Positions 2,128 to 62,853 of a stretch of 64,000 bases of DNA are shown here, piece after piece; within the stretch, counting starts at the first letter, position 1; each line of letters starts with the position of its first letter. The notes under the pieces are model-generated. The model was not told where the DNA came from and made no database searches. It worked only from the letters and a program-made list of their open reading frames with translations. The position numbers and the translations under genes were made by a program. The stretch comes from Escherichia phage Ec_Makalu_002. The DNA is taken from the sequence record MN709127.1. One strand, 5' to 3'.

Positions 2128-3369
2128 ATGACTCATATTTTTACTGAACTGTTGCGGGAATCTACTTCCTCAGTAGCTAACCAGACAGCGCGACCGCAAC
2201 TATTATCATTAACTCGCGCGGTAAACAACCTGATTTTCTCTGATCTGGTAGCAATCCAGCCAACGGATCAACCAGTATCTGCATTGTACGGCCTACGTTA
2301 TCTTAATCGTGATGGTCAGATGACTTTCCGAACTGCTGCAACCTACGGTGGTGCGGTTGGTGATCGCACAGAGATTGAAGAGTTTTCAAAAGAAAAATCT
2401 TATGACGAAGGCGCACTATTCAAATCAGGCGATGTTGTATACGAAGTTGTGACCGCTGGTACAGTCGGTGAAGATGCCGCAACTCCAGAAGCTGCGATCT
2501 TTAAAGGCGTAATGACAAACAAAATTCGTTTCTATAGCGATTGTGCATCGGTAGAATACTTTGAAGATAAAAACACCGAAATTGCGTCTACCTCTATGCA
2601 GTTTGACAAGTGGCAAGTTAATGTAGGTTCTCGTAAACTGAAAACCTCGTTCACCACTGAATTAATGCAGGATCTTGAGGCAAGCCAAATCAACTCTGAA
2701 AACTCTGTAATTGATCTTCTGGCTACTGTTGCTTCCGAAGAGATCAACAAAGATATTATTCAGAAGTTGATCACTGTATCATCTCGCTATAAAATTAAAG
2801 GGATCACCCCTGATGGCGTACTTTCTCTCGTTAGCGTTCAGGATGCACCAACACAAGCGCGTGAACTTTACCGCTATGCTTGCGAGATGAGCAATCAAAT
2901 GTTGCGGACTTCCTCCTTTGCTGGTACATACGTTTTGGCGTCTTCTCGCGTGGTTGGCCTCCTGCAATCTTCCGGTTGGATGGAAGAAACCGACAATGCT
3001 CTAAGCGAAGGTCGTCTACGTTGCGGTCTGGAAGTTTACGCAGACACGACAACACCTTTCGATTATATGCTCGTTGGTTGCAAGCACATGATCGGTGATA
3101 TGGAGAGTGTCGGTTCTCTGTTCTACTCCCCATATACAGAAGCTGACGGCGCTGGCGCGTATAAGAGCGTAATTGACCCTAATAGCTTCCAGCATCATGT
3201 AGCTATTATGAATCGTTATTCACTCTCTGTCAACCCATACACATCAAAAGTTGATCAGGAAGAACACCAGGTCATCAAGGGTGACGATTGGGGTAAAATG
3301 GCTGGACGTTCAGAAATGTCCTACATTTTAGGAATCGAACTGCCACCACTTGAGATTGACAACGCTTAA
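2128..3369 (+). CDS. 24: capsid vertex protein gp24
   Basis: Track ORF 2080..3369 starts at a TTG inside the late promoter; ATG at 2128 gives MTHIFTELLRES..., which aligns with the T4 gp24 N-terminus and capsid fold motifs. Confidence 0.9.
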   Translation: MTHIFTELLRESTSSVANQTARPQLLSLTRAVNNLIFSDLVAIQPTDQPVSALYGLRYLNRDGQMTFRTAATYGGAVGDRTEIEEFSKEKSYDEGALFKSGDVVYEVVTAGTVGEDAATPEAAIFKGVMTNKIRFYSDCASVEYFEDKNTEIASTSMQFDKWQVNVGSRKLKTSFTTELMQDLEASQINSENSVIDLLATVASEEINKDIIQKLITVSSRYKIKGITPDGVLSLVSVQDAPTQARELYRYACEMSNQMLRTSSFAGTYVLASSRVVGLLQSSGWMEETDNALSEGRLRCGLEVYADTTTPFDYMLVGCKHMIGDMESVGSLFYSPYTEADGAGAYKSVIDPNSFQHHVAIMNRYSLSVNPYTSKVDQEEHQVIKGDDWGKMAGRSEMSYILGIELPPLEIDNA

Positions 3370-7864: not shown

Positions 7865-9367
7865 ATGCAAGATATTAAAATTCACTTTCTGAACTACTCC
7901 CACGTTCAAATTGAATGTAGCGATTCAATTTTATTAGAAATGCGAGATTATTTTAGTTTTGAAGTCGAGGGAGCGCGGTTTCAAAAAAGATTTAAGTATG
8001 GCGGATGGGATGGGCGTATTCGTCTTTTAGATTACAATGGAAAGTTGCCAATCGGACTAACTAAAACCGTTGGTATCTTCGCTAAAAATATGGGTTATTC
8101 TGTTTGGGTAGACCCTCGCTTATTCGAGAAAGAACAGGTTACAGAAGAAGAGATCACAAAATGGTGTAACGACTTAGAATTATATTCCGGTGCTAACAGG
8201 ATCACCCCGCATTGGTATCAATCAAAGGCTGTCTTTGAAGGTATTCATCATAAACGCCGTATGTTAGTTTTGCCTACGTCCGCTGGTAAATCTGCGATTG
8301 CTTGTATGTTGTCTCGCTGGTACTTAGAGAACTACGAAGGGAAAGTGCTGATCATCGTTCCTACCACGTCTCTAGTGCTGCAAATGCGAGATGACTTTGT
8401 TGATTATCGCCAGTTTCCTTATGAAGCAATTCATACTATCATGAGCGGTACTAGTAAACACGTAGGTGATCGCCTGATCGTTGTTAGTACGTGGCAATCT
8501 GCATGTAAACAACCTCGTGAGTGGTTCCAACAATTCGGGATGGTTATTGTTGACGAATGTCACAAGGCCACGGCTAAAAACCTGCTAAACATCGTTACTG
8601 ATATGGATCATTGCCAATTTAAGATCGGTATGACTGGTTCCCCTCGTGACGGGAAAGCTAACATGATGCAGTATGTCGGGCTTTTCGGTGATATTTCTAA
8701 GATCGTGAGTATTGACCGCCTGATGGAAGAAGGTCAAGTGACAAAACTGAAAATTAACTGTCTTTTTCTTCGTTATACCGATGAGGAATGTAGCGCGGTT
8801 AAGGGGAGAGAATATGCGGAAGAGATCAAGTATATTACATCTAACCCACGACGTAATAAGTTTGCTTGCAATTTGGCGCTAAAACTCGCTAAGAAGGGCG
8901 AAAACGTATTCCTGATGTTCCGCAACACTAAGCACGGAAAACTTATGTATGATGCGTTACAGAAGGTACATGACAAGGTTTATTATATTGACGGTGGAGT
9001 TAAGACAGAAGAACGTGATGAATTTAAGAAAATGGCGGAAGGTGACACCGGGATCATTTGTGTTGCGTCTTATGGTGTGTTCTCTACTGGTGTTTCCATC
9101 AAGAACTTGCATCATGTTATTTTCGGTCATCCAGTGAAGGAATCAACCATCGTTCGTCAGAGTATCGGTCGTGCATTGCGTAAACATGGTTCTAAGGATA
9201 TTGCTACCGTTTGGGATCTTATCGATCATTTGGCGGTGAAGACAAAGAGCAAGAATGCTAAGAAACAGTTTAGTCACCTTAATTATGCTCTTAAACACGC
9301 GCTTTTGAGGATACAGCTTTACAATACCGATAAATTTGAGTATGCCACGAAAACCATCGAGATTTAA
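7865..9367 (+). CDS. uvsW: UvsW RNA-DNA/DNA helicase (SF2)
   Basis: Track ORF starts at GTG 7850; ATG 7865 with GAGG RBS gives MQDIKIHF..., like T4 UvsW; helicase motifs PTSAGKS, DECH, SAT-like. Confidence 0.92.
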   Translation: MQDIKIHFLNYSHVQIECSDSILLEMRDYFSFEVEGARFQKRFKYGGWDGRIRLLDYNGKLPIGLTKTVGIFAKNMGYSVWVDPRLFEKEQVTEEEITKWCNDLELYSGANRITPHWYQSKAVFEGIHHKRRMLVLPTSAGKSAIACMLSRWYLENYEGKVLIIVPTTSLVLQMRDDFVDYRQFPYEAIHTIMSGTSKHVGDRLIVVSTWQSACKQPREWFQQFGMVIVDECHKATAKNLLNIVTDMDHCQFKIGMTGSPRDGKANMMQYVGLFGDISKIVSIDRLMEEGQVTKLKINCLFLRYTDEECSAVKGREYAEEIKYITSNPRRNKFACNLALKLAKKGENVFLMFRNTKHGKLMYDALQKVHDKVYYIDGGVKTEERDEFKKMAEGDTGIICVASYGVFSTGVSIKNLHHVIFGHPVKESTIVRQSIGRALRKHGSKDIATVWDLIDHLAVKTKSKNAKKQFSHLNYALKHALLRIQLYNTDKFEYATKTIEI

Positions 9368-9410
9368 TAAATAGGGGCTTTAATGCCCCTTTATTCTACG
9401 GAGATTAAAA

Positions 9411-9647
9411 ATGATTAGCTTTAAACGTTTTTTGGTTGAGGCCGCTATTGACGGTTTCATGAGTAAGATTTATTCTTGTAATACTATCGAGGGATTGAAT
9501 GAACTTGAGGCATATTATGAGAAGCGCAAGAAAGAAACAGAATTGAAACCTGCTGATGATATTTCGATCCGTGATGCCATCGCCGGACGCCGTAAGCAAC
9601 TGGAGGCCGACAACGAGCCAGAAGAGGAGCCGGAAGAGGATTTTTAA
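9411..9647 (+). CDS. uvsW.1: UvsW.1-like small protein
   Basis: 78 aa directly downstream of uvsW, as in T4. Confidence 0.7.
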   Translation: MISFKRFLVEAAIDGFMSKIYSCNTIEGLNELEAYYEKRKKETELKPADDISIRDAIAGRRKQLEADNEPEEEPEEDF

Positions 9648-16621: not shown

Positions 16622-17553
16622 TGTTTGATTTAAATGACTTTAACGAACAAGCCGCTAACCTTGACTTTCAGCGATCTAACTTATTCAGCGTGGCATTTGC
16701 CACCACTCCAAGTAATAAGACACAAGCGATCCTAGAAAGTATGGGCGGTGCGGTATATGATATTATACCAAATGCATTAAATGACTATTTCGGGATTACT
16801 CGTGGTGATTATACTGACGCATTAACAAATCTTGCTGTACAGGGTGTTAGGCGTGCTGTTGATTCATCCGGTGTCAAAAAGTATCTTTTAGGTGCAATGT
16901 CATCCCGCGTAGTTCAATCTCTTCTGGGGCAATTTGATGTTGGTACATATGCGCTTGACTGGTTCAATATGGCATATAAGACAAGCGGTCTTCTGGTGTA
17001 TGCTGTTAAGGTTCCAGAAAACAGATTGAATTATGAAATAGACCGCAACCACAATGCGCCAAACATTCGAATTACGGGACGTGATTTTGATCCGCTTGTA
17101 TTGAGCTTTAGAATGGACTCTAGCGCATCAAACTATAGAGCAATGCAGGATTGGGTTAACTCAGTAGAAGACCCCGTTACAGGGCTTCGTGCGCTTCCTG
17201 TTGACGTTGAAGCAGATATTCAGGTTAACTTACATAACCGAATGGGAGTTCCTCACACGATCATGATGTTTAATGGTTGTGTTCCTGTTGGTGTGAGTGC
17301 ACCGGAATTAACCTATGAAAATAACAACGAAATTACAACATTCGATGTTACTTTTGCGTATAGGACTATGCAAACTGGTGCTGTAGGAGAGCAAGCCGCG
17401 CGAGAATGGATTGAGGATAAGGCAATAAACGCAATAACAAACACTTTCGGCAACAATTTACTTGATAGTGGGTTATCTGCTGCTGGTAATGCTTTATCGC
17501 GTCTAAATGGCGTCGGTGGGCGTGTGGTGAATACTGTCACTAACTGGTTCTGA
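16621..17553 (+). CDS. 54: baseplate tail-tube initiator gp54
   Basis: 310 aa; synteny. Confidence 0.8.
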   Translation: MFDLNDFNEQAANLDFQRSNLFSVAFATTPSNKTQAILESMGGAVYDIIPNALNDYFGITRGDYTDALTNLAVQGVRRAVDSSGVKKYLLGAMSSRVVQSLLGQFDVGTYALDWFNMAYKTSGLLVYAVKVPENRLNYEIDRNHNAPNIRITGRDFDPLVLSFRMDSSASNYRAMQDWVNSVEDPVTGLRALPVDVEADIQVNLHNRMGVPHTIMMFNGCVPVGVSAPELTYENNNEITTFDVTFAYRTMQTGAVGEQAAREWIEDKAINAITNTFGNNLLDSGLSAAGNALSRLNGVGGRVVNTVTNWF

Positions 17554-17559
17554 TAAGCG

Positions 17560-17592
17560 AAAGGCGGGGGACAATCCCCCGCCTTTTTATTT
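17560..17592. terminator. rho-independent terminator between convergent units
   Basis: Hairpin ggcgggggacaatcccccgcc followed by TTTTTATTTT. Confidence 0.7.
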
Positions 17593-18072
17593 TGCTAAAT
17601 CATTGCAATATTTTAGTGCCTTAGTTTGAAACTCTGCGCTGTTAAGTTCTTCATAACGGTCATAATCACCGTTTAATGCTGCCTTTCTTGCTTCTTGTTC
17701 TATCTGCATGTCAGACATGATAATACAACGATCCCGCGCTTTCATCTTCTCAAGTTGTATAGACTCTTCTTGTTGCTTGCGCAATTCTTCTTGATGCTTC
17801 TTTTCTTCTCGTGCTTTCTCTTCCCGCGCTTCTTTGATTGCATCTTTGAACATCTGCGTTTGTGGTGCTAAACCAACTTTAACGCGATCCACGTCTCGAC
17901 GTTCCATTTTAGAAATAAAACATGATTCGATCTGGTCATCGCTTGCATATGCTGCTTTACATTCACGAAGCAAGAAAACCGGATCTGATTTAGCATTCAT
18001 CATAGCTTCCATGTTAGTACAACCAGTAAGCATGAATGCAGCCGCAAGACCAATCAGTTTAATCATTTTCAT
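17587..18072 (-). CDS. predicted lipoprotein (161 aa)
   Basis: N-terminal signal peptide with lipobox LTGC; charged coiled-coil-like remainder. Confidence 0.6.
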   Translation of the reverse strand: MKMIKLIGLAAAFMLTGCTNMEAMMNAKSDPVFLLRECKAAYASDDQIESCFISKMERRDVDRVKVGLAPQTQMFKDAIKEAREEKAREEKKHQEELRKQQEESIQLEKMKARDRCIIMSDMQIEQEARKAALNGDYDRYEELNSAEFQTKALKYCNDLAK

Positions 18073-18893
18073 TTAGTCACCTCACCGAAAATTGTAAATT
18101 GTCTACGATTCTCATCGCCGAAAGATTCTACTACGTCGTTTACCTTGATGCAAGTCCCGCGCGGTAAAATTACTTCACATTCGCAAGGATTCCATGCAAT
18201 AGACCCAACAACAAAACCTTTATGATCTTTTACGTCAATTACCCATGATACATTACAAGAATGTTGCATCTTTCCGGTCATTGATTCATATCGATTCTCA
18301 CAATAAAGGCTAGTGCTGTTTGAAAGCCATCCTCCAAAGATGATCGGTGTCATGCTGGTCGATACAAAGTTTTTAAAGGTAAATTCCTTATCTTCAATAA
18401 TACGCTCTATTGTCTGAATGTCAAGATGTTGACCGCGATAAAGAGTACCGTTTAACTTTTCGGTTTTATCCATGACACAATCCATCAAATCGACAATCTC
18501 TGATATCTCATCGGTCATGTCTTCTTCCCCTAAGAGAGCACCATTTACCCATTCGTATTGTTCAGACACATAATCGCAGATTGCATTATATTCTGCTGGG
18601 GTTATGTTGTTATGTTTGTAATGTTTGAATACATTATCTCCAAAATCTTCGGAATGTACTTCATACATCACATTAATGATTTTCTTGACAAATCCATAAT
18701 CTTGCGTTTCTTGCTCAAGGAAACGGATAACTTTCACGTAATCATCAAAGTTAATATGATCGCTGATCATTTCAGTGATCATGTAACCATTAATCCCCTC
18801 AATGCCATATGTTTCGATGTAATTATCCATACGTTCCATCATTGATTCGCGTGATTCTTCGGAAAGGCGAAAATCCTGTAATTTCTTGAACAT
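18069..18893 (-). CDS. Alt-like ADP-ribosyltransferase (second, shorter paralog)
   Basis: R-S-E signature: LYRGQ, FVSTS, CECEVILPRG; 274 aa. Confidence 0.65.
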   Translation of the reverse strand: MFKKLQDFRLSEESRESMMERMDNYIETYGIEGINGYMITEMISDHINFDDYVKVIRFLEQETQDYGFVKKIINVMYEVHSEDFGDNVFKHYKHNNITPAEYNAICDYVSEQYEWVNGALLGEEDMTDEISEIVDLMDCVMDKTEKLNGTLYRGQHLDIQTIERIIEDKEFTFKNFVSTSMTPIIFGGWLSNSTSLYCENRYESMTGKMQHSCNVSWVIDVKDHKGFVVGSIAWNPCECEVILPRGTCIKVNDVVESFGDENRRQFTIFGEVTK

Positions 18894-18972
18894 TTTAAAC
18901 CTCCCATATAACAGAAAACGGGGCTAGTATAAAACTAGTCCCCGTTTGAGTCAACCATTATTTCTTAAAAAA

Positions 18973-21024
18973 TTACATTTTAAATTTATCCGGCATAGCG
19001 TCTACAGACACAAGATCAGCGATAAGCTGACGTAGAGTTGCCTTATCTGCTTTCTTACGTTCGGTTTTAGCTTCGGTAATGAAGCTGGAGAAAGACAGGT
19101 CAGAAGCAGGTTTAACAACACCTTCACGGATGAATGCATCACCGTCCGCGATCATCTCACCAGATTCTTGTAATGCTGCCAGTTCATTTTTGTTCATAAT
19201 ATGTGCCTCGATGTAATAAGTTTCTTGTGAATCCGTCGATGCCGTAGCACGAGTTACCGTATCAAAGGATAACACAACACCGCGAGGAAGTAAAATCTCG
19301 CATTCTTTGTAAGCAAATGCTTTGTTACCTACTGGCAATACAGGGATGTTTTCCGCGCCAGCAATGGAGAAAGCAACATTAGCGCCACCTTCACCGCGAG
19401 ATCCCGCCATAGAATCAACACCAGCAACGGCACTAGCCACGTTTGCATTCCAGCCACCAAAAATATTAGGTGCAAGGGAAGTGCTCACATAGTTTTTAAA
19501 GTAAAACGCTTTTTGCTTACGTGCAGTTTCCCACATTTGCGACCGGAAGTCCATACCACGATACAAGATAGTACCTGGATCAAGTTTAACACCATAGTTA
19601 GCAAATGCGTTATCCAGTGCATCACACATCTTGACCAATTCTTCTGGGTCTGCGATGCCTTCAAACTCTTCCAGCTTACGGTCGGTTAGGAAGTTGTTCA
19701 TATTGATGTATGCTGCATCCGCATATTCGCTCAACACAAAACCTTCCGCGCCAGGCAGATCAAGATCAATATCTGCCATCATTTCACCCATGTTGCTAGC
19801 AATTGCTTCAAACATACCGGAAGCAACATTACGCAGGGCATCGGTTTTAATCTGCGTGATGTGACTACGCAGCATTTCAGCTTTTACATCTGCTGGCATA
19901 GACTGGTCGACGCGATCCATTGCCAGGGCGGTGATCTTGTTTTCGAATACTTCCTCGCTCATGATTTCTTTTAAGCGTTTGATTGATGCTGCGATGACTT
20001 CCGCAGACAACGGATCATATTGATCCTGAACTTTTACCAGTTCGCTTACTGCATATTTTGCATCGGCTTCGCTTTCAAAAATAGTACGCATGAAACCATA
20101 GCGAGTGATAATATCACTTGTCCAGTCATTCAGAGAACGGGCGGTTGAACGTTCTAAGGCTTGACGGTCAATCAGAGTATTAAACTGTTTCTTAGGTTCT
20201 GCTTCGGTGATATCTTCTTCCGGTTTAAGATTAATTTTTTCTGGATGATTCACATAGTCGCTGTTATAGGTCGCTTGAGTTTTCAGCATTTCTTCTTTAG
20301 TCAAACGAGATTTAGCCGCTACGCGTTGTTCTGCTTCCGCGTTTCGTTCTTCTTCCGACACAAGACTAGCCGCATACGCCTCATCTTTAGTCAGAGATTC
20401 ACCAGTAGCCTTAGATACCCAGCGATCACCTAAATCACTTTCTACTTTAGTGAACAGGGATTCATCGAGTTTAATCCCTTTAATCTTATCAATCGCCATC
20501 CCGCGACGTTTGACAACAACTAAAGCGATCTTTTTGCTGGTCATTACTTCCTGCTGGAATACTTCAAACTTCGGTGTACGACGCACCAAACGCTCTATAA
20601 CGCGCTTAACCAGTTCGGTCTTACCTTTCATGCGGGATACGTTAAAACGGAACATAACAGCGTCTAATTGCGCTTTACGGGCTGTTTCCATGACCACATC
20701 AAAAGCACTTGACATAACTGCAATCGGGTTATCTCCTAGACCATTTTTAAGCTGTACAATACGACCGCTTTTGTTCATTTCGCACAGTACAACATGTGCG
20801 GTCTTGTCACCCATACGAATGATTTTAGGTGTTTTGTTGGTGAAGTTACAAAGACGGACAATCACATCTTTATCGCGTGTCTGTACTGCAAAAAGCTGTT
20901 TAGGATTCTGCTTAGGCTTTAAGCACTGTACCGGAGCAATACTGCCAAAGTTTTCTTCCTCTTCCGTCAACAGCCATTTCTCGAAAGATTCAATCATTAG
21001 ATCGTCGATTTCTAAGTTAAACAT
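18973..21024 (-). CDS. alt: Alt ADP-ribosyltransferase
   Basis: 683 aa; LYRGMD, YVSTSLAPNIFGGW, YKECEILLPRG; T4-like position next to gene 54. Confidence 0.85.
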   Translation of the reverse strand: MFNLEIDDLMIESFEKWLLTEEEENFGSIAPVQCLKPKQNPKQLFAVQTRDKDVIVRLCNFTNKTPKIIRMGDKTAHVVLCEMNKSGRIVQLKNGLGDNPIAVMSSAFDVVMETARKAQLDAVMFRFNVSRMKGKTELVKRVIERLVRRTPKFEVFQQEVMTSKKIALVVVKRRGMAIDKIKGIKLDESLFTKVESDLGDRWVSKATGESLTKDEAYAASLVSEEERNAEAEQRVAAKSRLTKEEMLKTQATYNSDYVNHPEKINLKPEEDITEAEPKKQFNTLIDRQALERSTARSLNDWTSDIITRYGFMRTIFESEADAKYAVSELVKVQDQYDPLSAEVIAASIKRLKEIMSEEVFENKITALAMDRVDQSMPADVKAEMLRSHITQIKTDALRNVASGMFEAIASNMGEMMADIDLDLPGAEGFVLSEYADAAYINMNNFLTDRKLEEFEGIADPEELVKMCDALDNAFANYGVKLDPGTILYRGMDFRSQMWETARKQKAFYFKNYVSTSLAPNIFGGWNANVASAVAGVDSMAGSRGEGGANVAFSIAGAENIPVLPVGNKAFAYKECEILLPRGVVLSFDTVTRATASTDSQETYYIEAHIMNKNELAALQESGEMIADGDAFIREGVVKPASDLSFSSFITEAKTERKKADKATLRQLIADLVSVDAMPDKFKM

Positions 21025-21063
21025 TTTATATCCTCTAGTTGATAACCTATAAACCTATATTTA

Positions 21064-21086
21064 TGAAAAAGGGGCTTAACACCCCC
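21064..21086 (-). terminator. rho-independent terminator ending the early small-gene unit
   Basis: Minus-strand hairpin GGGGUGUUAAGCCCC followed by U-run. Confidence 0.55.
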
Positions 21087-21091
21087 ATTTA

Positions 21092-21304
21092 TTATAATGC
21101 ACCATCGAGCAATTGCTCTAAGGTGTATCCTGAATAGTCTTTTTCAATCAGGATATATTTTCCTACTCGTTTAATACAACCGCGCATTTCAACGTATTCT
21201 GCGTAGTTGATGGTGCGAGTTGTTCCATCTTCTAGTAAAGCAGTACCGATTTCGTTAATGCGGTCATAAGTTACGTCGGTAATGATGATTTCGATGTTAG
21301 CCAT
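21092..21304 (-). CDS. hypothetical protein (70 aa)
   Basis: Track ORF with RBS, preceded by promoter cassette. Confidence 0.55.
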   Translation of the reverse strand: MANIEIIITDVTYDRINEIGTALLEDGTTRTINYAEYVEMRGCIKRVGKYILIEKDYSGYTLEQLLDGAL

Positions 21305-21340
21305 TTGATACTCCTTAGTAGTTCGTTTCGGTATGGGTGT

Positions 21341-21369
21341 ATTATGATATACACCCTCTGTTATGTCAA
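21341..21369 (-). promoter_or_regulatory. PeSL-like early promoter cassette
   Basis: Minus TTGACA-17-CATAAT; stem-loop gggtgtat-N6-atacaccc (21334-21355) covers the -10. Confidence 0.55.
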
Positions 21370-21375
21370 CAACTT

Positions 21376-21556
21376 TTAGAACATTTTTGAAATTAATTCT
21401 GCTTTGATTTCGCAGAGAACATCTAAAGATTTCTCGTCACCCGCTTTTGCTGCTTCTGCTTGCATTTTTGAAATGGCTTCAATGTCAGTGCAATTATAAG
21501 CCGCTTGAACTTTAGCGATTGCGATGATTGCCGATTCGATGGTTAAGTGTTTCATG
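21376..21556 (-). CDS. hypothetical 59-aa protein
   Basis: ATG with GGAGAA RBS; MKHLTIESAIIAIAK... Confidence 0.45.
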
Positions 21557-21587
21557 TTTGATTCTCCTTTCGTTTCGGTATGTGTGC

Positions 21588-21616
21588 AGTATAGGGGATC
21601 GCCGATCCCCTGTCAA
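21588..21616 (-). promoter_or_regulatory. PeSL-like early promoter cassette
   Basis: Minus TTGACA-17-TATACT; spacer is the palindrome aggggatcgccgatcccct (two GATC). Confidence 0.55.
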
Positions 21617-21623
21617 CAACTTT

Positions 21624-22142
21624 TTAGTTATTTTTTAATTGCTCATCTTGCAATAATGCAATCACATGCTGGCGATGTTCTTCCGATTGAGGAACACCGA
21701 AAAAGTTTGTTTTGTAGAAATACTCTAATCGGTCTTCTCGTGTGCTCTCTTCCATCATGATCGCGGGTAGTCCAAGATTTCGGAAACGTCGCTTTTCTGC
21801 TGGCGTAAAATCACTGTAATACAACATAGAATCATCATTACCAGCAATGCTAAACTCATCCTTCATAAAGGAGAATATTGCGTTTAAACGCTGTTTACCG
21901 TCCACGATTTCGATCTCATAGCGAGAGCCATCATCAATCTTAGCCATTGCGATAGCACCAACCGGAAAATCATTAATCAGGTTTTCGATAAACATACGTT
22001 TGTTTTCGGTGTCCCATACCAAAGGACGCTGATAATCTGGGTTCATGTTGATATAGCCATCTTCTAACCACGCCTCATAAACAGAGATGACAAAGTTTTT
22101 AGTATTGGTATAGTAACGGCGTTTAGGCGTTAAACGGTTCAT
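21624..22142 (-). CDS. DUF262 / ParB-like (GmrS N-terminal type) domain protein
   Basis: ATG 22142 with AGGAG RBS; DYQRPLVWD...FPVGAI...IVDGKQRLNAI matches the DUF262 signature; no C-terminal nuclease domain. Confidence 0.6.
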   Translation of the reverse strand: MNRLTPKRRYYTNTKNFVISVYEAWLEDGYINMNPDYQRPLVWDTENKRMFIENLINDFPVGAIAMAKIDDGSRYEIEIVDGKQRLNAIFSFMKDEFSIAGNDDSMLYYSDFTPAEKRRFRNLGLPAIMMEESTREDRLEYFYKTNFFGVPQSEEHRQHVIALLQDEQLKNN

Positions 22143-22143
22143 G

Positions 22144-22476
22144 TTATAGTCTCCTGAATGGATCATCACGTAAATCAATATCTTTTAAGAACTCATCCCA
22201 TGAATGGCGGATAATGTTCTTAATTCTCCAGATAAGCGCAGGGATTGAACGCTCTCCCATCTGGAAGTAAGGATCATATGATCCATATGCCCAATATGCT
22301 ACTACAATTCCACAATCGGCGCAATAATATTCTATTTCACTTGCTGGCGACCAAAGTCCATCAATATGATCACGGATCTTGCTTTCGATGTTATGGCTAT
22401 GGCAATCAGGGCAACGGATGCAATGACCTTGTTTATCGTAATTTGACGTTAGCGAATACTTAAACAATCTCATCAT
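22144..22476 (-). CDS. Zn-ribbon protein (110 aa)
   Basis: CIRCPDC ... CADCG (two CxxC pairs); stop is 1 nt before the next start. Confidence 0.55.
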   Translation of the reverse strand: MMRLFKYSLTSNYDKQGHCIRCPDCHSHNIESKIRDHIDGLWSPASEIEYYCADCGIVVAYWAYGSYDPYFQMGERSIPALIWRIKNIIRHSWDEFLKDIDLRDDPFRRL

Positions 22477-23189
22477 AGATCCTTATTGGCTTCAAATACT
22501 GCCTTTGCGAATCCTCGCGGGGTAAGTGACCTGATAGTCTTTGTTCTGGTTCCTTTCCCGCCTAGCTTAGAATGCTGTTTACTGTACCCTTTATTAATCT
22601 GCAACGGTTTCTTTTCTGGCATTATAAAGCCTTGTCCGGTCCATAAGCAAGTCTTTTTCGGGTACATATCACGGGCGGCAATATACTCAGGAAACGTAGG
22701 ATGCTTATCATCTTCCGGCAAATAACCGCCATATTCCCACGGATGGAACATGTAATCAGGCTTACGCCACATGCTAGAGATAACGCTTACAGGATTCTCT
22801 ATCATGTAGGGAACTCCTAGCCATTCACCCAAATAAGCGGTTATTTTAGCTGCCCTTACATCATGAACTTGAATTAATGGTCCTTGTTCTCGTTTCTTTC
22901 GTTCAAAGTGCGCAGCGCCACTAACAGCTAAATTGGTGCATGGTGGGAATGCAAAGATAATATCCGGTTTCCCCCATTCAAGGTCCATTGCTCTTTCCAG
23001 CCAATTTAAATCAATCCATGTGTTTACATATGTAATGTTTGGATGTTCAAATCGGGTATTATATTTTTTGTATGTACCGTGGTCGCCATCGTCAGCATTA
23101 AAGCAGATCACCTTATGACCTGCTTTAGCCCATTCTAACCCCATTATCCCCGATCCGTCAAAGTTGCAGAATATTAATTTTTGTTTCAT
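22473..23189 (-). CDS. compact C5-cytosine methyltransferase-like protein
   Basis: Motif I-like NFDGSGIMG, motif IV-like FAFPPCTNLAVSGA (PC with catalytic Cys), motif VI-like MIENPV, C-terminal RSLTPRGFAKA; only 238 aa. Confidence 0.5.
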   Translation of the reverse strand: MKQKLIFCNFDGSGIMGLEWAKAGHKVICFNADDGDHGTYKKYNTRFEHPNITYVNTWIDLNWLERAMDLEWGKPDIIFAFPPCTNLAVSGAAHFERKKREQGPLIQVHDVRAAKITAYLGEWLGVPYMIENPVSVISSMWRKPDYMFHPWEYGGYLPEDDKHPTFPEYIAARDMYPKKTCLWTGQGFIMPEKKPLQINKGYSKQHSKLGGKGTRTKTIRSLTPRGFAKAVFEANKDL

Positions 23190-23679: not shown

Positions 23680-23719
23680 TGTTTGATTCTCCTAAGTGGT
23701 ATCTCGTCTTGATGGTTGT

Positions 23720-23748
23720 ATTGTAGGGGAGTTATCCTCCCCTGTCAA
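23720..23748 (-). promoter_or_regulatory. PeSL-like early promoter for operon 23679..21624
   Basis: Minus TTGACA-17-TACAAT; palindrome aggggagttatcctcccct in the spacer. Confidence 0.5.
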
Positions 23749-23762
23749 CACTTTTTATAAAA

Positions 23763-23930: not shown

Positions 23931-23963
23931 TTTGATTCTCCTATTTCGTTTCGGTATGTGTGT

Positions 23964-23992
23964 ATTATAGGGGATCTCCCGATCCCCGTCAA
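23964..23992 (-). promoter_or_regulatory. PeSL-like early promoter cassette
   Basis: Minus TTGACG-17-TATAAT; palindrome ggggatctcccgatcccc. Confidence 0.55.
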
Positions 23993-24006
23993 CAACTTTT
24001 TTAAAA

Positions 24007-24288: not shown

Positions 24289-24321
24289 TTTTGATTCTCC
24301 AGTTCGTTTCGGTATGGGTGT

Positions 24322-24350
24322 ATTATGCTATGTTCTTACTTTGGTGTCAA
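24322..24350 (-). promoter_or_regulatory. PeSL-like early promoter cassette
   Basis: Minus TTGACA-17-CATAAT. Confidence 0.5.
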
Positions 24351-24358
24351 CAACTTTT

Positions 24359-24628
24359 TTAGATATTTTCAGAAATAAATTTTAAAACTTGACGTAAATG
24401 TTTCTCATCTTTGATAGTCGCCGGAAGTTCTTCTTTTACTTCCTGTGCAAGATAGATATTTCCGTTCCAAGTGAAAGACCCGTCTTCGTTTACGCGATAG
24501 CTGAACATCCATTCGCAATCATTTTCGATTTCATATACACACAGAAGGGTGTAATCTTCAAAGCTATTGATTTCAAGGTCGAAGCCGTGGCGTTTTGCAA
24601 AGTTGGTAGTGGTTTTAGTCAGTGCCAT
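24359..24628 (-). CDS. hypothetical protein (89 aa)
   Basis: Track ORF with RBS. Confidence 0.55.
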   Translation of the reverse strand: MALTKTTTNFAKRHGFDLEINSFEDYTLLCVYEIENDCEWMFSYRVNEDGSFTWNGNIYLAQEVKEELPATIKDEKHLRQVLKFISENI

Positions 24629-27247: not shown

Positions 27248-27276
27248 ATTATAGGGGATCGGTGATCCCCTGTCAA
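27248..27276 (-). promoter_or_regulatory. PeSL-like early promoter cassette
   Basis: Minus TTGACA-17-TATAAT; palindrome ggggatcggtgatcccc. Confidence 0.55.
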
Positions 27277-28164: not shown

Positions 28165-28380
28165 TTACATAACAATCACGCCAGCCGTTGAAAGTTGATG
28201 TTTCAACTGAGCATTTTCTGCTACTGTCAAATCAATGATTTCTTGTGACGCTGCAATCATATAGCCATTGGTGATATTGTTTTGCATCAGTTCAATGGTT
28301 TCTTCGTTGTAGCGGATTTTAGCGATGATTTCGTTGAAGTTCATGTTTGATTCTCCTAGTTCGTTTCGGTATGTGTGCAT
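28165..28380 (-). CDS. hypothetical protein (71 aa)
   Basis: Track ORF with AGGAGAA RBS. Confidence 0.55.
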   Translation of the reverse strand: MHTYRNELGESNMNFNEIIAKIRYNEETIELMQNNITNGYMIAASQEIIDLTVAENAQLKHQLSTAGVIVM

Positions 28381-28408
28381 TATAGGGGATCTCCCGACCC
28401 CCTGTCAA
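28379..28408 (-). promoter_or_regulatory. PeSL-like early promoter cassette
   Basis: Minus TTGACA-18-TATAAT; near-palindrome ggggatctcccgaccccc. Confidence 0.55.
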
Positions 28409-62824: not shown

Positions 62825-62853
62825 AGTATAGGGGATCACCGATCCCCTGTCAA
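62825..62853 (-). promoter_or_regulatory. PeSL-like early promoter cassette
   Basis: Minus TTGACA-17-TATACT; palindrome ggggatcaccgatcccc. Confidence 0.55.

Follow-up and report, generated by a model that had tools for sequence, protein, structure and literature searches.

The alt locus of Escherichia phage Ec_Makalu_002, a Krischvirus of the RB49/Phi1/GEC-3S group with 99.7% identity with phage Ec_Makalu_003, carries two genes for ADP-ribosyltransferases (ARTs), a full-length alt and a short alt-like gene called here mini-Alt, the latter followed by a lipoprotein gene. Between the two ART genes lies a hairpin which, judged by its sequence, unites the features of a terminator and of an early promoter in the manner of the PeSL architecture. 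On balance, we lean towards a reading in which Alt is a late, packaged protein and mini-Alt together with the lipoprotein forms a separate early operon.

Organization of the locus

The locus is situated in a 64,000-nt window of the phage genome (GenBank acc. no. MN709127.1), and its features are collected in Table 1. All three reading frames lie on the minus strand at the positions given in the first-pass annotation, including the lipoprotein gene directly downstream of the short ART gene, and the trio is present in 58 of the 58 sequenced Krischvirus members. The arrangement is real, but already public. The 274-aa gene corresponds to RB49ORF183c (RB49p183), recorded as "similar to C-terminal part of T4 Alt" and listed by Nolan et al. 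(2006) among paralogous duplications with alt as the parent gene; the RB49 record and the literature have covered the genes and their kinship to alt since 2003–2006, and the promoter/stem-loop class has been known since 2010. A search of the literature found no Krischvirus transcriptome or virion proteome data.

Table 1. Features of the alt locus in the window analysed
Feature	Position	Strand	Evidence
Bidirectional terminator, perfect 12–13 bp G+C-rich hairpin with T-runs on both sides	17559..17587		terminator scan
Predicted lipoprotein gene, 161 aa, RB49ORF182c homologue	17587..18072	-	signal peptide and lipobox; PHROG 16112
Lipobox LTGC, residues 15–18	18019-18030	-	MKMIKLIGLAAAFM-LTGC signal peptide and lipobox
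mini-Alt gene, short Alt-like ADP-ribosyltransferase, 274 aa, RB49ORF183c homologue	18069..18893	-	PF03496, PHROG 15144
mini-Alt catalytic codons	R153 18435-18437; S178-S180 18354-18362; E238 18180-18182; E240 18174-18176	-	
mini-Alt SD, GGGAGG	18900-18905	-	
Composite PeSL-type element (putative)	18908..18954	-	promoter/terminator scans, fold, conservation
Parts of the element: -35 TTGACT; -10 TATACT; U-tract	18949-18954; 18926-18931; 18908-18918	-	
Bulged hairpin overlapping the -10 box	18916-18947 (arms 18916-18928 and 18935-18947)	-	
alt gene, full-length Alt-type ADP-ribosyltransferase, 683 aa	18973..21024	-	PHROG 802, T4 Alt match, PF03496
alt catalytic codons	R489 19558-19560; S514-S516 19477-19485; E574 19303-19305; E576 19297-19299	-	
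Late-promoter-like octamer CATAAATA, 33 nt upstream of the alt ATG	21058..21065	-	motif search
Terminator-like hairpin GGGGGTGTTAAGCCCCT with TTTTT, just upstream of alt	21070..21086	-	terminator scan

Full-length alt and its upstream signals

The 683-aa protein is the orthologue of T4 Alt, with the same length, the same slot beside gene 54, end-to-end homology and the R/STS/ExE residues, but the two are only ca. 27% identical (BLAST, 695 columns, E 3e-61). It comprises an N-terminal Tevenvirinae_ADPRT region, an ART domain and a conserved C-terminal tail. Its residues 16–683 match PHROG 802 in a profile search (E 1.3e-179), Pfam PF03496 is matched with 36.0 bits (E 5.6e-9; cut-off 23.4), and near-identical copies of the protein are matched by both PF26846 and PF03496, while no sequence relative was found in the PDB. 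The gene is under strong purifying selection (dN/dS 0.02–0.04).

As in T4, a terminator followed by a late-promoter-like motif lies upstream of alt. The hairpin coincides with the TransTerm site "alt<--RB49ORF185c" of Nolan et al. (2006), and the octamer CATAAATA, conserved in RB49, is the only match to NATAAATA within positions 17400–21500. This putative late promoter departs in its first base from the T4 late promoter consensus, TATAAATA, which in its exact form is absent throughout the same interval. The order of terminator and then late promoter also precedes alt of T4, alt of T6 and alt of a metagenomic lineage (L008), the octamer at the equivalent post-terminator place being TATAAATA in T4 and T6 and AATAAATA in L008. 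By analogy with these phages, we infer that alt is expressed late from CATAAATA. No late-promoter-like motif (NATAAATA) is found before the mini-Alt gene. The top-scoring late promoter of Nolan et al. (2006), Pl:112065, falls inside ORF183c, where TATAAATA occurs on neither strand.

In T4, alt is a late gene, its product is present in 40 copies per head, and gp21 cuts it at both termini. The search for prohead-protease sites proposed in the first-pass annotation yielded candidate (L/I)-x-E sites in both Krischvirus ARTs, LTE21 and LQE620/IRE634 in Alt and LSE12 in mini-Alt; those of Alt are conserved and, as in T4 Alt, lie near both termini.

The mini-Alt protein

mini-Alt matches PF03496 with 58.1 bits (E 9.9e-16; cut-off 23.4) and PHROG 15144 with E 1e-195 in a profile search; the PF03496 matches of both ARTs lie well outside what chance would produce. 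When the two proteins are aligned by MAFFT to T4 Alt and the two Alts of T6, the R / S-T-S / E-x-E signature previously noticed in them occupies the same columns, formed by R489, S514-T515-S516 and E574-C-E576 in Alt, R153, S178-T179-S180 and E238-C-E240 in mini-Alt, and R478, S503-505 and E574/E576 in T4 Alt. The catalytic arginine and glutamates have thus not been lost from the short copy. The first-pass annotation described this copy as devoid of most of the long N-terminal region, and the N-terminal ca. 420 residues of Alt are indeed missing, but the truncation is not confined to that end, as the C-terminal tail of ca. 75 residues, which in Alt holds the conserved LQE/IRE-type sites, is gone too. 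Residues 95–273 of mini-Alt align with residues 421–610 of Alt (hhalign, E 2e-41) and no other part of Alt is matched, which leaves the 274-aa protein without the full-length Alt architecture. A correspondence of residues 1–94 to Alt 331–420, hinted at by the PHROG 802 range and by MAFFT, was not confirmed by hhalign. mini-Alt shares 37% identity over 109 aa with the adjacent Alt and 31% over 181 aa with T4 Alt. It is thus no nearer to its neighbour than to the T4 protein; a recent duplication of alt was therefore rejected, and mini-Alt represents an old lineage.

The AF2 model of mini-Alt has a pLDDT of 92.9, and Foldseek matched it to Vis, C3bot, CDTa and Ia with E values from 1e-11 to 1e-9. 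The protein is confidently predicted to have a C3/Vis/iota-type ADP-ribosyltransferase fold. It shares this fold and the motif layout with C3 exoenzyme, Vis, iota-toxin Ia and CDTa (the R-S-E clade), but is only 15–20% identical to them and has an extra N-terminal helical region of ca. 90 residues; moreover, its ExE motif is of the arginine type, in contrast to QxE of C3. The mini-Alt gene is under strong purifying selection (dN/dS 0.04–0.09), and the protein is at least 97.4% identical across all 58 genomes.

As a small R-S-ExE ART proposed to be synthesized de novo from an early promoter, mini-Alt resembles T4 ModA and ModB, which are early, non-packaged proteins. However, no homology to either was detectable (BLASTP E 0.43 and 5.0, i.e. 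E > 0.4), and the likeness is one of functional analogy only. The true Mod homologue of RB49, RB49p014, is intact and located elsewhere in the genome.

The element between alt and mini-Alt

The inverted repeat between the ART genes, proposed earlier as an RNA stability or attenuation element, exists, but it is imperfect, with one bulged base and a loop of 5–7 nt. On the transcribed (minus) strand it folds with -20.9 kcal/mol (z = -2.6), and UUUUCUGUU comes after it. Its form is that of an intrinsic terminator of alt transcripts, and to this extent the proposal stands; what it had missed is that the hairpin is at the same time joined to a conserved, predicted early promoter, a sigma-70-type TTGACT-17-TATACT overlapping the repeat, whose hexamers agree with the consensus at 10–11 of 12 positions.

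The succession ttttttaagaaataatgg-TTGACT-17-TATACT ... GGGAGG ... ATG, with an A/T-rich lead, an intergenic spacer before the SD and a stable GGGG/CCCC stem overlapping the -10 box, resembles that of the PeSLs of the same phage group. In these (Arbiol et al. 2010; Comeau et al. 2014), an A/T-rich stretch, the sigma-70 -35 and -10 boxes at 17-bp spacing and a GGGG...CCCC stem-loop are followed by the SD and ATG of the next gene. The element differs from them in that it has no canonical leader gcacacataccgaaacga and possesses a clear U-tract. Arbiol et al. (2010) described a subclass of PeSLs, matched by the layout here, in which the stem-loop overlaps the -10 box, and promoter and terminator activity was shown experimentally for other Phi1/RB49 PeSLs; the alt/mini-Alt element does not appear by name in the searchable part of the PeSL paper. 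At its exact site Nolan et al. (2006) predicted the early promoter Pe:112388, with an HMM score of 9.3 versus 33–39 for the canonical PeSLs nearby; canonical PeSLs are present just upstream within the window. The element is labelled a promoter in the GEC-3S record and a terminator in the Ec_Makalu_003 record. Rfam gave no match at the inverted repeat, only sub-threshold terminator-like ones at 17546–17595.

In the alt/mini-Alt spacers of six lineages, TTGAC(A/T)-17-TATACT is invariant, and a GGGG...CCCC hairpin with a U-tract is retained (6/6). Both variable stem pairs (2/2) change compensatorily, and 98.6% of cells are paired.

The lipoprotein gene and possible exchange of the downstream genes

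The start codon of the lipoprotein gene overlaps the mini-Alt stop codon by 4 nt (ATGA). The earlier designation of its product as a lipoprotein holds, as it has a signal peptide and the lipobox MKMIKLIGLAAAFM-LTGC; LTGC, which conforms to [LVI][ASTVI][GAS]C, is invariant across the family, and SignalP 1-20 had already been reported for RB49ORF182c. The protein has four further conserved cysteines, is predicted to be all-helical and is under purifying selection (dN/dS 0.10–0.14). PHROG 16112, to which it belongs by profile, is annotated as "function unknown", and Pfam, NCBIfam, PDB and BFVD yielded no neighbour outside its own family. A match to PHROG 1119 (Cor; E 0.0084) covers residues 1–45 only; no o-spanin or Cor-Llp family profile matches past the signal peptide, nor is there an adjacent i-spanin partner. 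A spanin role was rejected, as RB49, Phi1 and JSE carry T4-type spanins elsewhere. By sequence comparison, the lipoprotein makes up an orphan family, of which the genus holds two widely divergent alleles (ca. 30% identity); matching to the receptor was rejected, both alleles occurring with both types of the gp38 adhesin. The terminator between the lipoprotein gene and the convergent gene 54 is also given by Nolan et al. (2006), and a both-strand terminator is annotated in the GEC-3S and Makalu_003 records.

The order alt, mini-Alt, a lipoprotein gene of ca. 160 aa and convergent gene 54 recurs in metagenomic lineages with a mini-Alt of only 45–62% identity, and the start/stop overlap of the last two minus-strand genes is conserved in every lineage. 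In one metagenomic lineage (L016) the identities are 96% for alt, 66% for mini-Alt, 44% for the lipoprotein and 90% for gp54, and in phage Whisky 98% for mini-Alt and 32% for the lipoprotein. These two cases suggest cassette-like exchange at the flanks of the element.

Proposed expression of the locus

In the scheme that we infer for timing, packaging, enzyme activity and targets, the alt locus would consist of two transcription units. The upstream terminator would shield alt from early transcription coming from upstream, late transcription would start from CATAAATA, and Alt would, like its T4 counterpart, enter the prohead and be injected together with the DNA. The hairpin after alt would halt the late transcript, and with the overlapping sigma-70 promoter it would make a terminator/early-promoter cassette of the PeSL type. 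Right after infection, host RNA polymerase may initiate at ca. 18919, downstream of the 5' arm, and the early mRNA would therefore be free of the hairpin. This mRNA would code for mini-Alt and a translationally coupled lipoprotein of the outer-membrane type, and end at the bidirectional terminator beside gene 54. mini-Alt would be active as an arginine-specific (ExE-type) mono-ADP-ribosyltransferase; being synthesized de novo in the cytoplasm, it would have ModA/ModB-like timing, though of the Alt lineage. It speaks against this reading that RB49 already has an intact Mod homologue, so that there need be no ModA-like gap to fill. That the lipoprotein has an early periplasmic or outer-membrane role, e.g. 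in superinfection exclusion, is a guess.

A broader claim is put forward tentatively, as a possibility that we doubt rather than favour: that mini-Alt and the lipoprotein form a self-contained, exchangeable early cassette reaching from the PeSL to the bidirectional terminator, which supplies a second Alt-lineage ART differing in timing or delivery, with the two diverged lipoprotein alleles reflecting a specificity in exclusion or in interaction with the envelope.

Alternative readings

It is unlikely that mini-Alt is also packaged into the head and injected, its first ca. 12 residues acting like a capsid-targeting sequence (CTS) removed by the prohead protease after L-S-E12. The N-terminus MFKKLQDFRLSE resembles the CTS of T4 IPIII, MKTYQEFIAE, in that hydrophobic residues and Phe occupy the positions used for targeting and (L/I)-x-E those used for processing, and the first 11 residues form a lower-confidence appendage ahead of the first long helix in the AF2 model. 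Of 7 non-redundant mini-Alts, 5 have an (L/I)-x-E site that is complete by residue 13, versus 130 of 20000 shuffles, with a threshold chosen post hoc; Krischvirus gp24 retains its L-R-E propeptide site, which points to a conserved specificity of the prohead protease, and a protein made early could still enter heads later. Nevertheless, the sequence of the first dozen residues is not conserved across the family, no other CTS-like N-termini occur in 114 kb of Krischvirus DNA, the RB49 annotation contains no internal-protein genes, and what precedes the gene is a terminator with a conserved sigma-70 promoter, not a late one. If mini-Alt were packaged, two distinct ARTs would be injected by the phage, as is probably so for T6-type phages that carry two full-length Alts. 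We regard as distinctly improbable that the inverted repeat is only a terminator or 3'-end stabiliser of the alt mRNA, the hexamers being incidental and mini-Alt and the lipoprotein expressed late by partial read-through that starts at the alt promoter. This would agree with the terminator-only label in Ec_Makalu_003, the low HMM score, and T4 and T6, in which a second alt copy directly follows alt with no promoter between. It does not account for the -35 TTGAC, which lies outside the hairpin and yet is invariant, at a fixed 17-bp spacing to an invariant TATACT, in six lineages with 45–62% protein identity; the fit of the hexamers to the consensus, the promoter label in GEC-3S and a layout equal to that of experimentally active PeSLs also speak against it.

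Two further readings have little standing. That the ART and the lipoprotein are a toxin/immunity or secretion pair, in which the lipoprotein neutralises or exports the ART, is very improbable, despite their tight coupling by the start/stop overlap and the precedent of ART toxins such as Tre1, to which there is a weak sequence match and which adjoin immunity genes. mini-Alt lacks a signal peptide and depends on cytoplasmic NAD; the lipoprotein, in contrast, is exported and has no fold or family match among known immunity proteins. Within the genus the lipoprotein is replaced by an allele of 30% identity in phages whose ART remains 98% identical, which makes a co-evolving binding pair unlikely. 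The idea that the short gene is a decaying, functionless remnant of an alt duplication could invoke the T4 remnants alt.-1/alt.-2 in the same slot and a Tequatrovirus metagenome contig with the second alt split into 273-aa and 415-aa ORFs. It is effectively refuted by the data on selection and conservation, as all catalytic residues are intact, dN/dS is low, identity is high among the 58 genomes, the fold model is confident, and in other lineages the short form, together with a conserved regulatory element of its own, persists at 45–62% identity.

Relation to other phages and significance

A second alt-derived gene between alt and gene 54 is also found in T-even phages, as a second full-length Alt in T6 and RB32, alt.-1/alt.-2 in T4 and ORF187c/188c in 44RR. 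The Krischvirus arrangement differs from these in that mini-Alt is the catalytic half, without the N-terminal domain and the C-terminal tail, in that it is split from alt by a terminator and a promoter instead of being co-transcribed, and in that a coupled lipoprotein gene always follows it.

As found, the locus has little significance, the genes, the alt kinship and the PeSL class having already been published. Should the cassette reading be true, the second ART would act either as a "Mod-like" early enzyme made de novo or, with its capsid-targeting-like N-terminus, as an injected effector in the style of internal proteins. One locus apparently offers two formats of a single ART lineage, one full-length, late and packaged, the other a catalytic half with an early promoter and a coupled lipoprotein, a testable contrast that might show what head packaging and ejection require of Alt and which of its parts set the choice of target. 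The dimorphic orphan lipoprotein is a candidate for superinfection exclusion or an envelope function in therapeutic RB49-like coliphages.

The alt locus in Krischvirus

A megablast search with 17400-21200 returned 58 phage records, each matching over the whole query at 97-99.7% identity, with Ec_Makalu_003 as the top match (99.7%); all 58, with RB49, Phi1, JSE, and GEC-3S among them, belong to the RB49-type coliphages (genus Krischvirus). The locus comprises alt, a gene for a short ADP-ribosyltransferase (ART), here called mini-Alt, and a lipoprotein gene, and the coordinates of the three ORFs in the first-pass annotation were exact. As in T4, alt lies on the minus strand; the plus-strand neighbours of the locus are the T4 tail-tube/hub genes 29, 48, and 54.

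Features of the alt region and related elements in the window
Feature	Position	Strand	Product
Gene 24, start of gp24	~2128-2160	+	
Sub-threshold Rfam matches	17546-17595	+	
Putative bidirectional terminator	17559-17587		
Lipoprotein gene	17587-18072	-	161 aa
Mini-Alt gene	18069-18893	-	274 aa
Predicted late promoter Pl:112065	~18603-18645		
Hairpin and predicted promoter in the alt/mini-Alt spacer	18908-18954	-	
alt	18973-21024	-	683 aa
Canonical PeSL repeat	21321-21378	-	
Canonical PeSL repeat	21568-21625	-	
ORF of the PeSL-rich region	21624-22178	-	184 aa
ORF of the PeSL-rich region	22473-23189	-	238 aa
Canonical PeSL repeat	23700-23757	-	
Canonical PeSL repeat	23944-24001	-	
Canonical PeSL repeat	24302-24359	-	
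Further canonical PeSL repeat	near 27248-27276	-	
Further canonical PeSL repeat	near 28379-28408	-	
Further canonical PeSL repeat	near 62825-62853	-	

ADP-ribosyltransferases

Both Alt and mini-Alt pass the Pfam profile PF03496. Among the PHROGs, the alt product matches the Alt family over its whole length (E 1e-179), and mini-Alt an ART family of its own, which is 274 positions long (E 1e-195). When the two were aligned by MAFFT with ModA/ModB and the Alts of T4 (one) and T6 (two), the motifs Arg, S-T-S, and E-x-E came out in register (R489, S514-516, E574, and E576 in Alt; R153, S178-180, E238, and E240 in mini-Alt), and the signature ascribed to both proteins from the sequence is thereby borne out by Pfam and alignment alike. 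Across 27 aligned family sequences Y108, R153, and S178 (mini-Alt numbering) do not vary, and E238 and E240 hardly do. Since the motifs are both aligned and conserved, the objection that the short copy might have lost its catalytic residues fails. In the C3/iota families the ExE form goes with arginine as the acceptor, and its occurrence in mini-Alt points to arginine as the predicted acceptor here. The AF2 model of mini-Alt is confident (pLDDT 92.9), the closest solved folds being Vis, C3bot, CDTa, iota Ia, and Certhrax.

In a profile-profile comparison Alt 421-610 aligns with residues 95-273 of the short family (E 2e-41), and the end of mini-Alt is the end of the ART domain; mini-Alt is therefore without the N-terminal ~420 residues and without a ~75-residue C-terminal tail, which carries a conserved ...MPxKF end. 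The N-terminal loss had been recognized from the sequence, that of the tail had been missed. A recent duplication was ruled out, mini-Alt matching the neighbouring Alt at 37% over 109 aa vs T4 Alt at 31% over 181 aa. Metagenomes yielded short-form relatives of 271-288 aa at 82, 62, 48, and 45% identity; among 1.84 billion representative proteins there were only 88 matches at E<=1e-3, mostly Alts of 600-712 aa.

RB49 has a single Mod homologue of 167 aa, adjoining srd (8917-9420 of the RB49 sequence L006, outside the window), with intact motifs (R44, S70, E132-x-E134), and the RB49 genome parts examined have no annotated modA/modB pair. The genus therefore has as many ARTs as T4, three, but in a different mix: Alt, mini-Alt, and one Mod.

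Upstream regions of alt and mini-Alt

Upstream of alt a terminator hairpin is followed by CATAAATA. At the equivalent site T4 and T6 have a terminator and then TATAAATA, with a leader, ACTAGAG(A)GGATAT, similar to the alt leader of the window, and the divergent lineage L008 has a terminator and then AATAAATA. In T4, alt was found by experiment to be late and ModA/ModB early; T4 Alt is present in 40 copies per head and trimmed at both ends by gp21. Krischvirus Alt has candidate (L/I)-x-E sites, LTE21 and LQE620/IRE634, at positions matching T4. The gp24 start, MTHIFTELLRE/S (cf. T4 MAKINELLRE/S), keeps an LRE propeptide site, which indicates a prohead protease with conserved (L/I)-x-E specificity in this phage.

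The spacer between alt and mini-Alt reads, on the transcribed strand, TAA-ttttttaagaaataatgg-TTGACT-caaACGGGGaCTAGttttaTACTAGCCCCGTtttctgttatatGGGAGGtttaaaATG. It holds a bulged hairpin of 12 pairs, followed by a U-tract, and a predicted sigma-70 promoter with 10 of 12 consensus matches, the -10 of which lies within the loop and 3' arm of the hairpin. The inverted repeat had been proposed as an RNA element, and the hairpin with its U-tract is indeed present; the overlapping promoter had escaped notice. Rfam gave no match at the repeat. Judged by sequence, the architecture is that of the promoter-early stem-loops (PeSLs) of Phi1/RB49, in which a stem-loop over the -10 is one of the two commonest placements, and representatives of which were shown to be strong promoters and terminators (Arbiol et al. 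2010). Four further lineages, whose flanking proteins are 45-62% identical, yielded the equivalent spacer, and TTGAC(A/T), TATACT at a 17-bp spacing, GGGG/CCCC, and the T-tract are unchanged in it. Variation in the stem is confined to two pairs, both of which co-change (98.6% of cells paired, 5 compensatory changes; 2 of 500 shuffles as high; n = 6 sequences only).

Five canonical PeSLs, with repeats aaaaagttgTTGACAggggatc..gatccccTATAaTgcacacataccgaaacga..aggagaatcaaaATG, lie within 5.5 kb upstream. Such repeats precede small ORFs and mark a hyperplastic region upstream of alt. Homologues of the 184-aa ORF in this region carry Pfam GmrSD_N (PF03235), and the 238-aa ORF is elsewhere annotated as a C-5 cytosine DNA methyltransferase; the two could be DNA-modification or anti-restriction genes. 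The top-scoring predicted RB49 late promoter of Nolan et al. (2006), Pl:112065 (score 15.9; RB49 112023-112065), falls within the mini-Alt gene, and no TATAAATA-like octamer occurs there on either strand.

Expression and packaging

On the reading that is somewhat favoured, alt would be late, packaged, and injected, and mini-Alt and the lipoprotein gene would be transcribed early as one operon, from the PeSL promoter to the bidirectional terminator. Transcription would start ~7 nt past the -10, inside the 3' arm of the hairpin, and the early mRNA would therefore be without the hairpin; transcripts coming from alt would meet it.

The main rival, that mini-Alt is packaged too, is rather unlikely. 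Its N-terminus, MFKKLQDFRLSE, resembles the capsid-targeting sequence (CTS) of T4 IPIII, MKTYQEFIAE, and 5 of 7 non-redundant members have an (L/I)-x-E site that is complete by residue 13 (130 of 20000 local shuffles, the threshold being post hoc); however, the N-terminal residues themselves show no conservation across the family, and no further CTS-like protein was found in 114 kb of Krischvirus DNA. That the inverted repeat is a terminator only is quite improbable. The spacer is annotated as a terminator in one genome and as a promoter in another, and an early promoter predicted at RB49 112338-112388, with flanking terminators, coincides exactly with it (Nolan et al. 2006, supplement). To judge from a dN/dS of 0.04-0.09 and an identity of at least 97.4% across all 58 genomes, mini-Alt is a working gene, a pseudogene being essentially excluded; so is a toxin-immunity pair of mini-Alt and the lipoprotein. 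The two genes are tightly coupled in every case.

Lipoprotein gene and possible cassette exchange

The lipoprotein was called correctly, its lipobox (LTGC) being of textbook form, and its signal peptide had been predicted already in 2006. It belongs to an unnamed PHROG family, with no relatives detectable outside the clade, and is predicted to be all-helical, with one helix of ~60 residues; four cysteines besides the lipid Cys are conserved. Allele A is found in 50 of the 58 genomes (93-100% identity), and allele B, 169 aa long and 29-32% identical, takes the same slot in eight (Whisky, PHB13, E26, 011D4, G37-3, AV108, JK32, and PTE-Eco09). Both have an identical signal peptide and an adjacent ART about 98% (at least 97.4%) identical; a third group, at 83%, comes from metagenomes. 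Alleles showed no correlation with gp38 adhesin type. In Whisky the divergence runs on, milder, through genes 54, 48, and 29 (88, 76, and 67%), and in the metagenome lineage L016 the flanks are 90-96% identical vs 66% for mini-Alt and 44% for the lipoprotein; the pair, or the lipoprotein gene alone, therefore appears to have been exchanged as a block. Exchange by PeSL-mediated shuffling would fit this pattern, which is no proof of it. At the bidirectional terminator, sub-threshold Rfam matches to the Salmonella sRNA STnc390 (32.6 bits vs a gathering score of 50) and to the terminator end of CsrC most likely reflect mere terminator resemblance.

Second alt-derived genes in T4-like phages

The first-pass observation is a correct reading of a locus already known: RefSeq annotates RB49p183 as related to the C-terminal part of T4 Alt, and Nolan et al. 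(2006) regarded RB49ORF183c, 44RRORF188c, and T4 alt.-1/alt.-2 as paralogous duplications of alt. Beyond this, the analysis adds only the conservation evidence for a combined terminator and promoter, the model of an early cassette, the question of mini-Alt packaging, and the two divergent forms of the lipoprotein. In T4 the second-copy slot is occupied by alt.-1/alt.-2, which derive from a copy of the alt 5' part and have decayed; T6 has two tandem Alts, both full-length; and in Tequatrovirus-like metagenome contigs (L011/L012, 5183-7248) the second alt is split into two overlapping ORFs, one of 273 aa for the N-terminal domain and one of 415 aa for the ART, a form that could be an intermediate between the tandem Alts of T6 and catalytic-only forms. 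A second alt-derived gene in this slot has therefore been documented repeatedly among T4-like phages.
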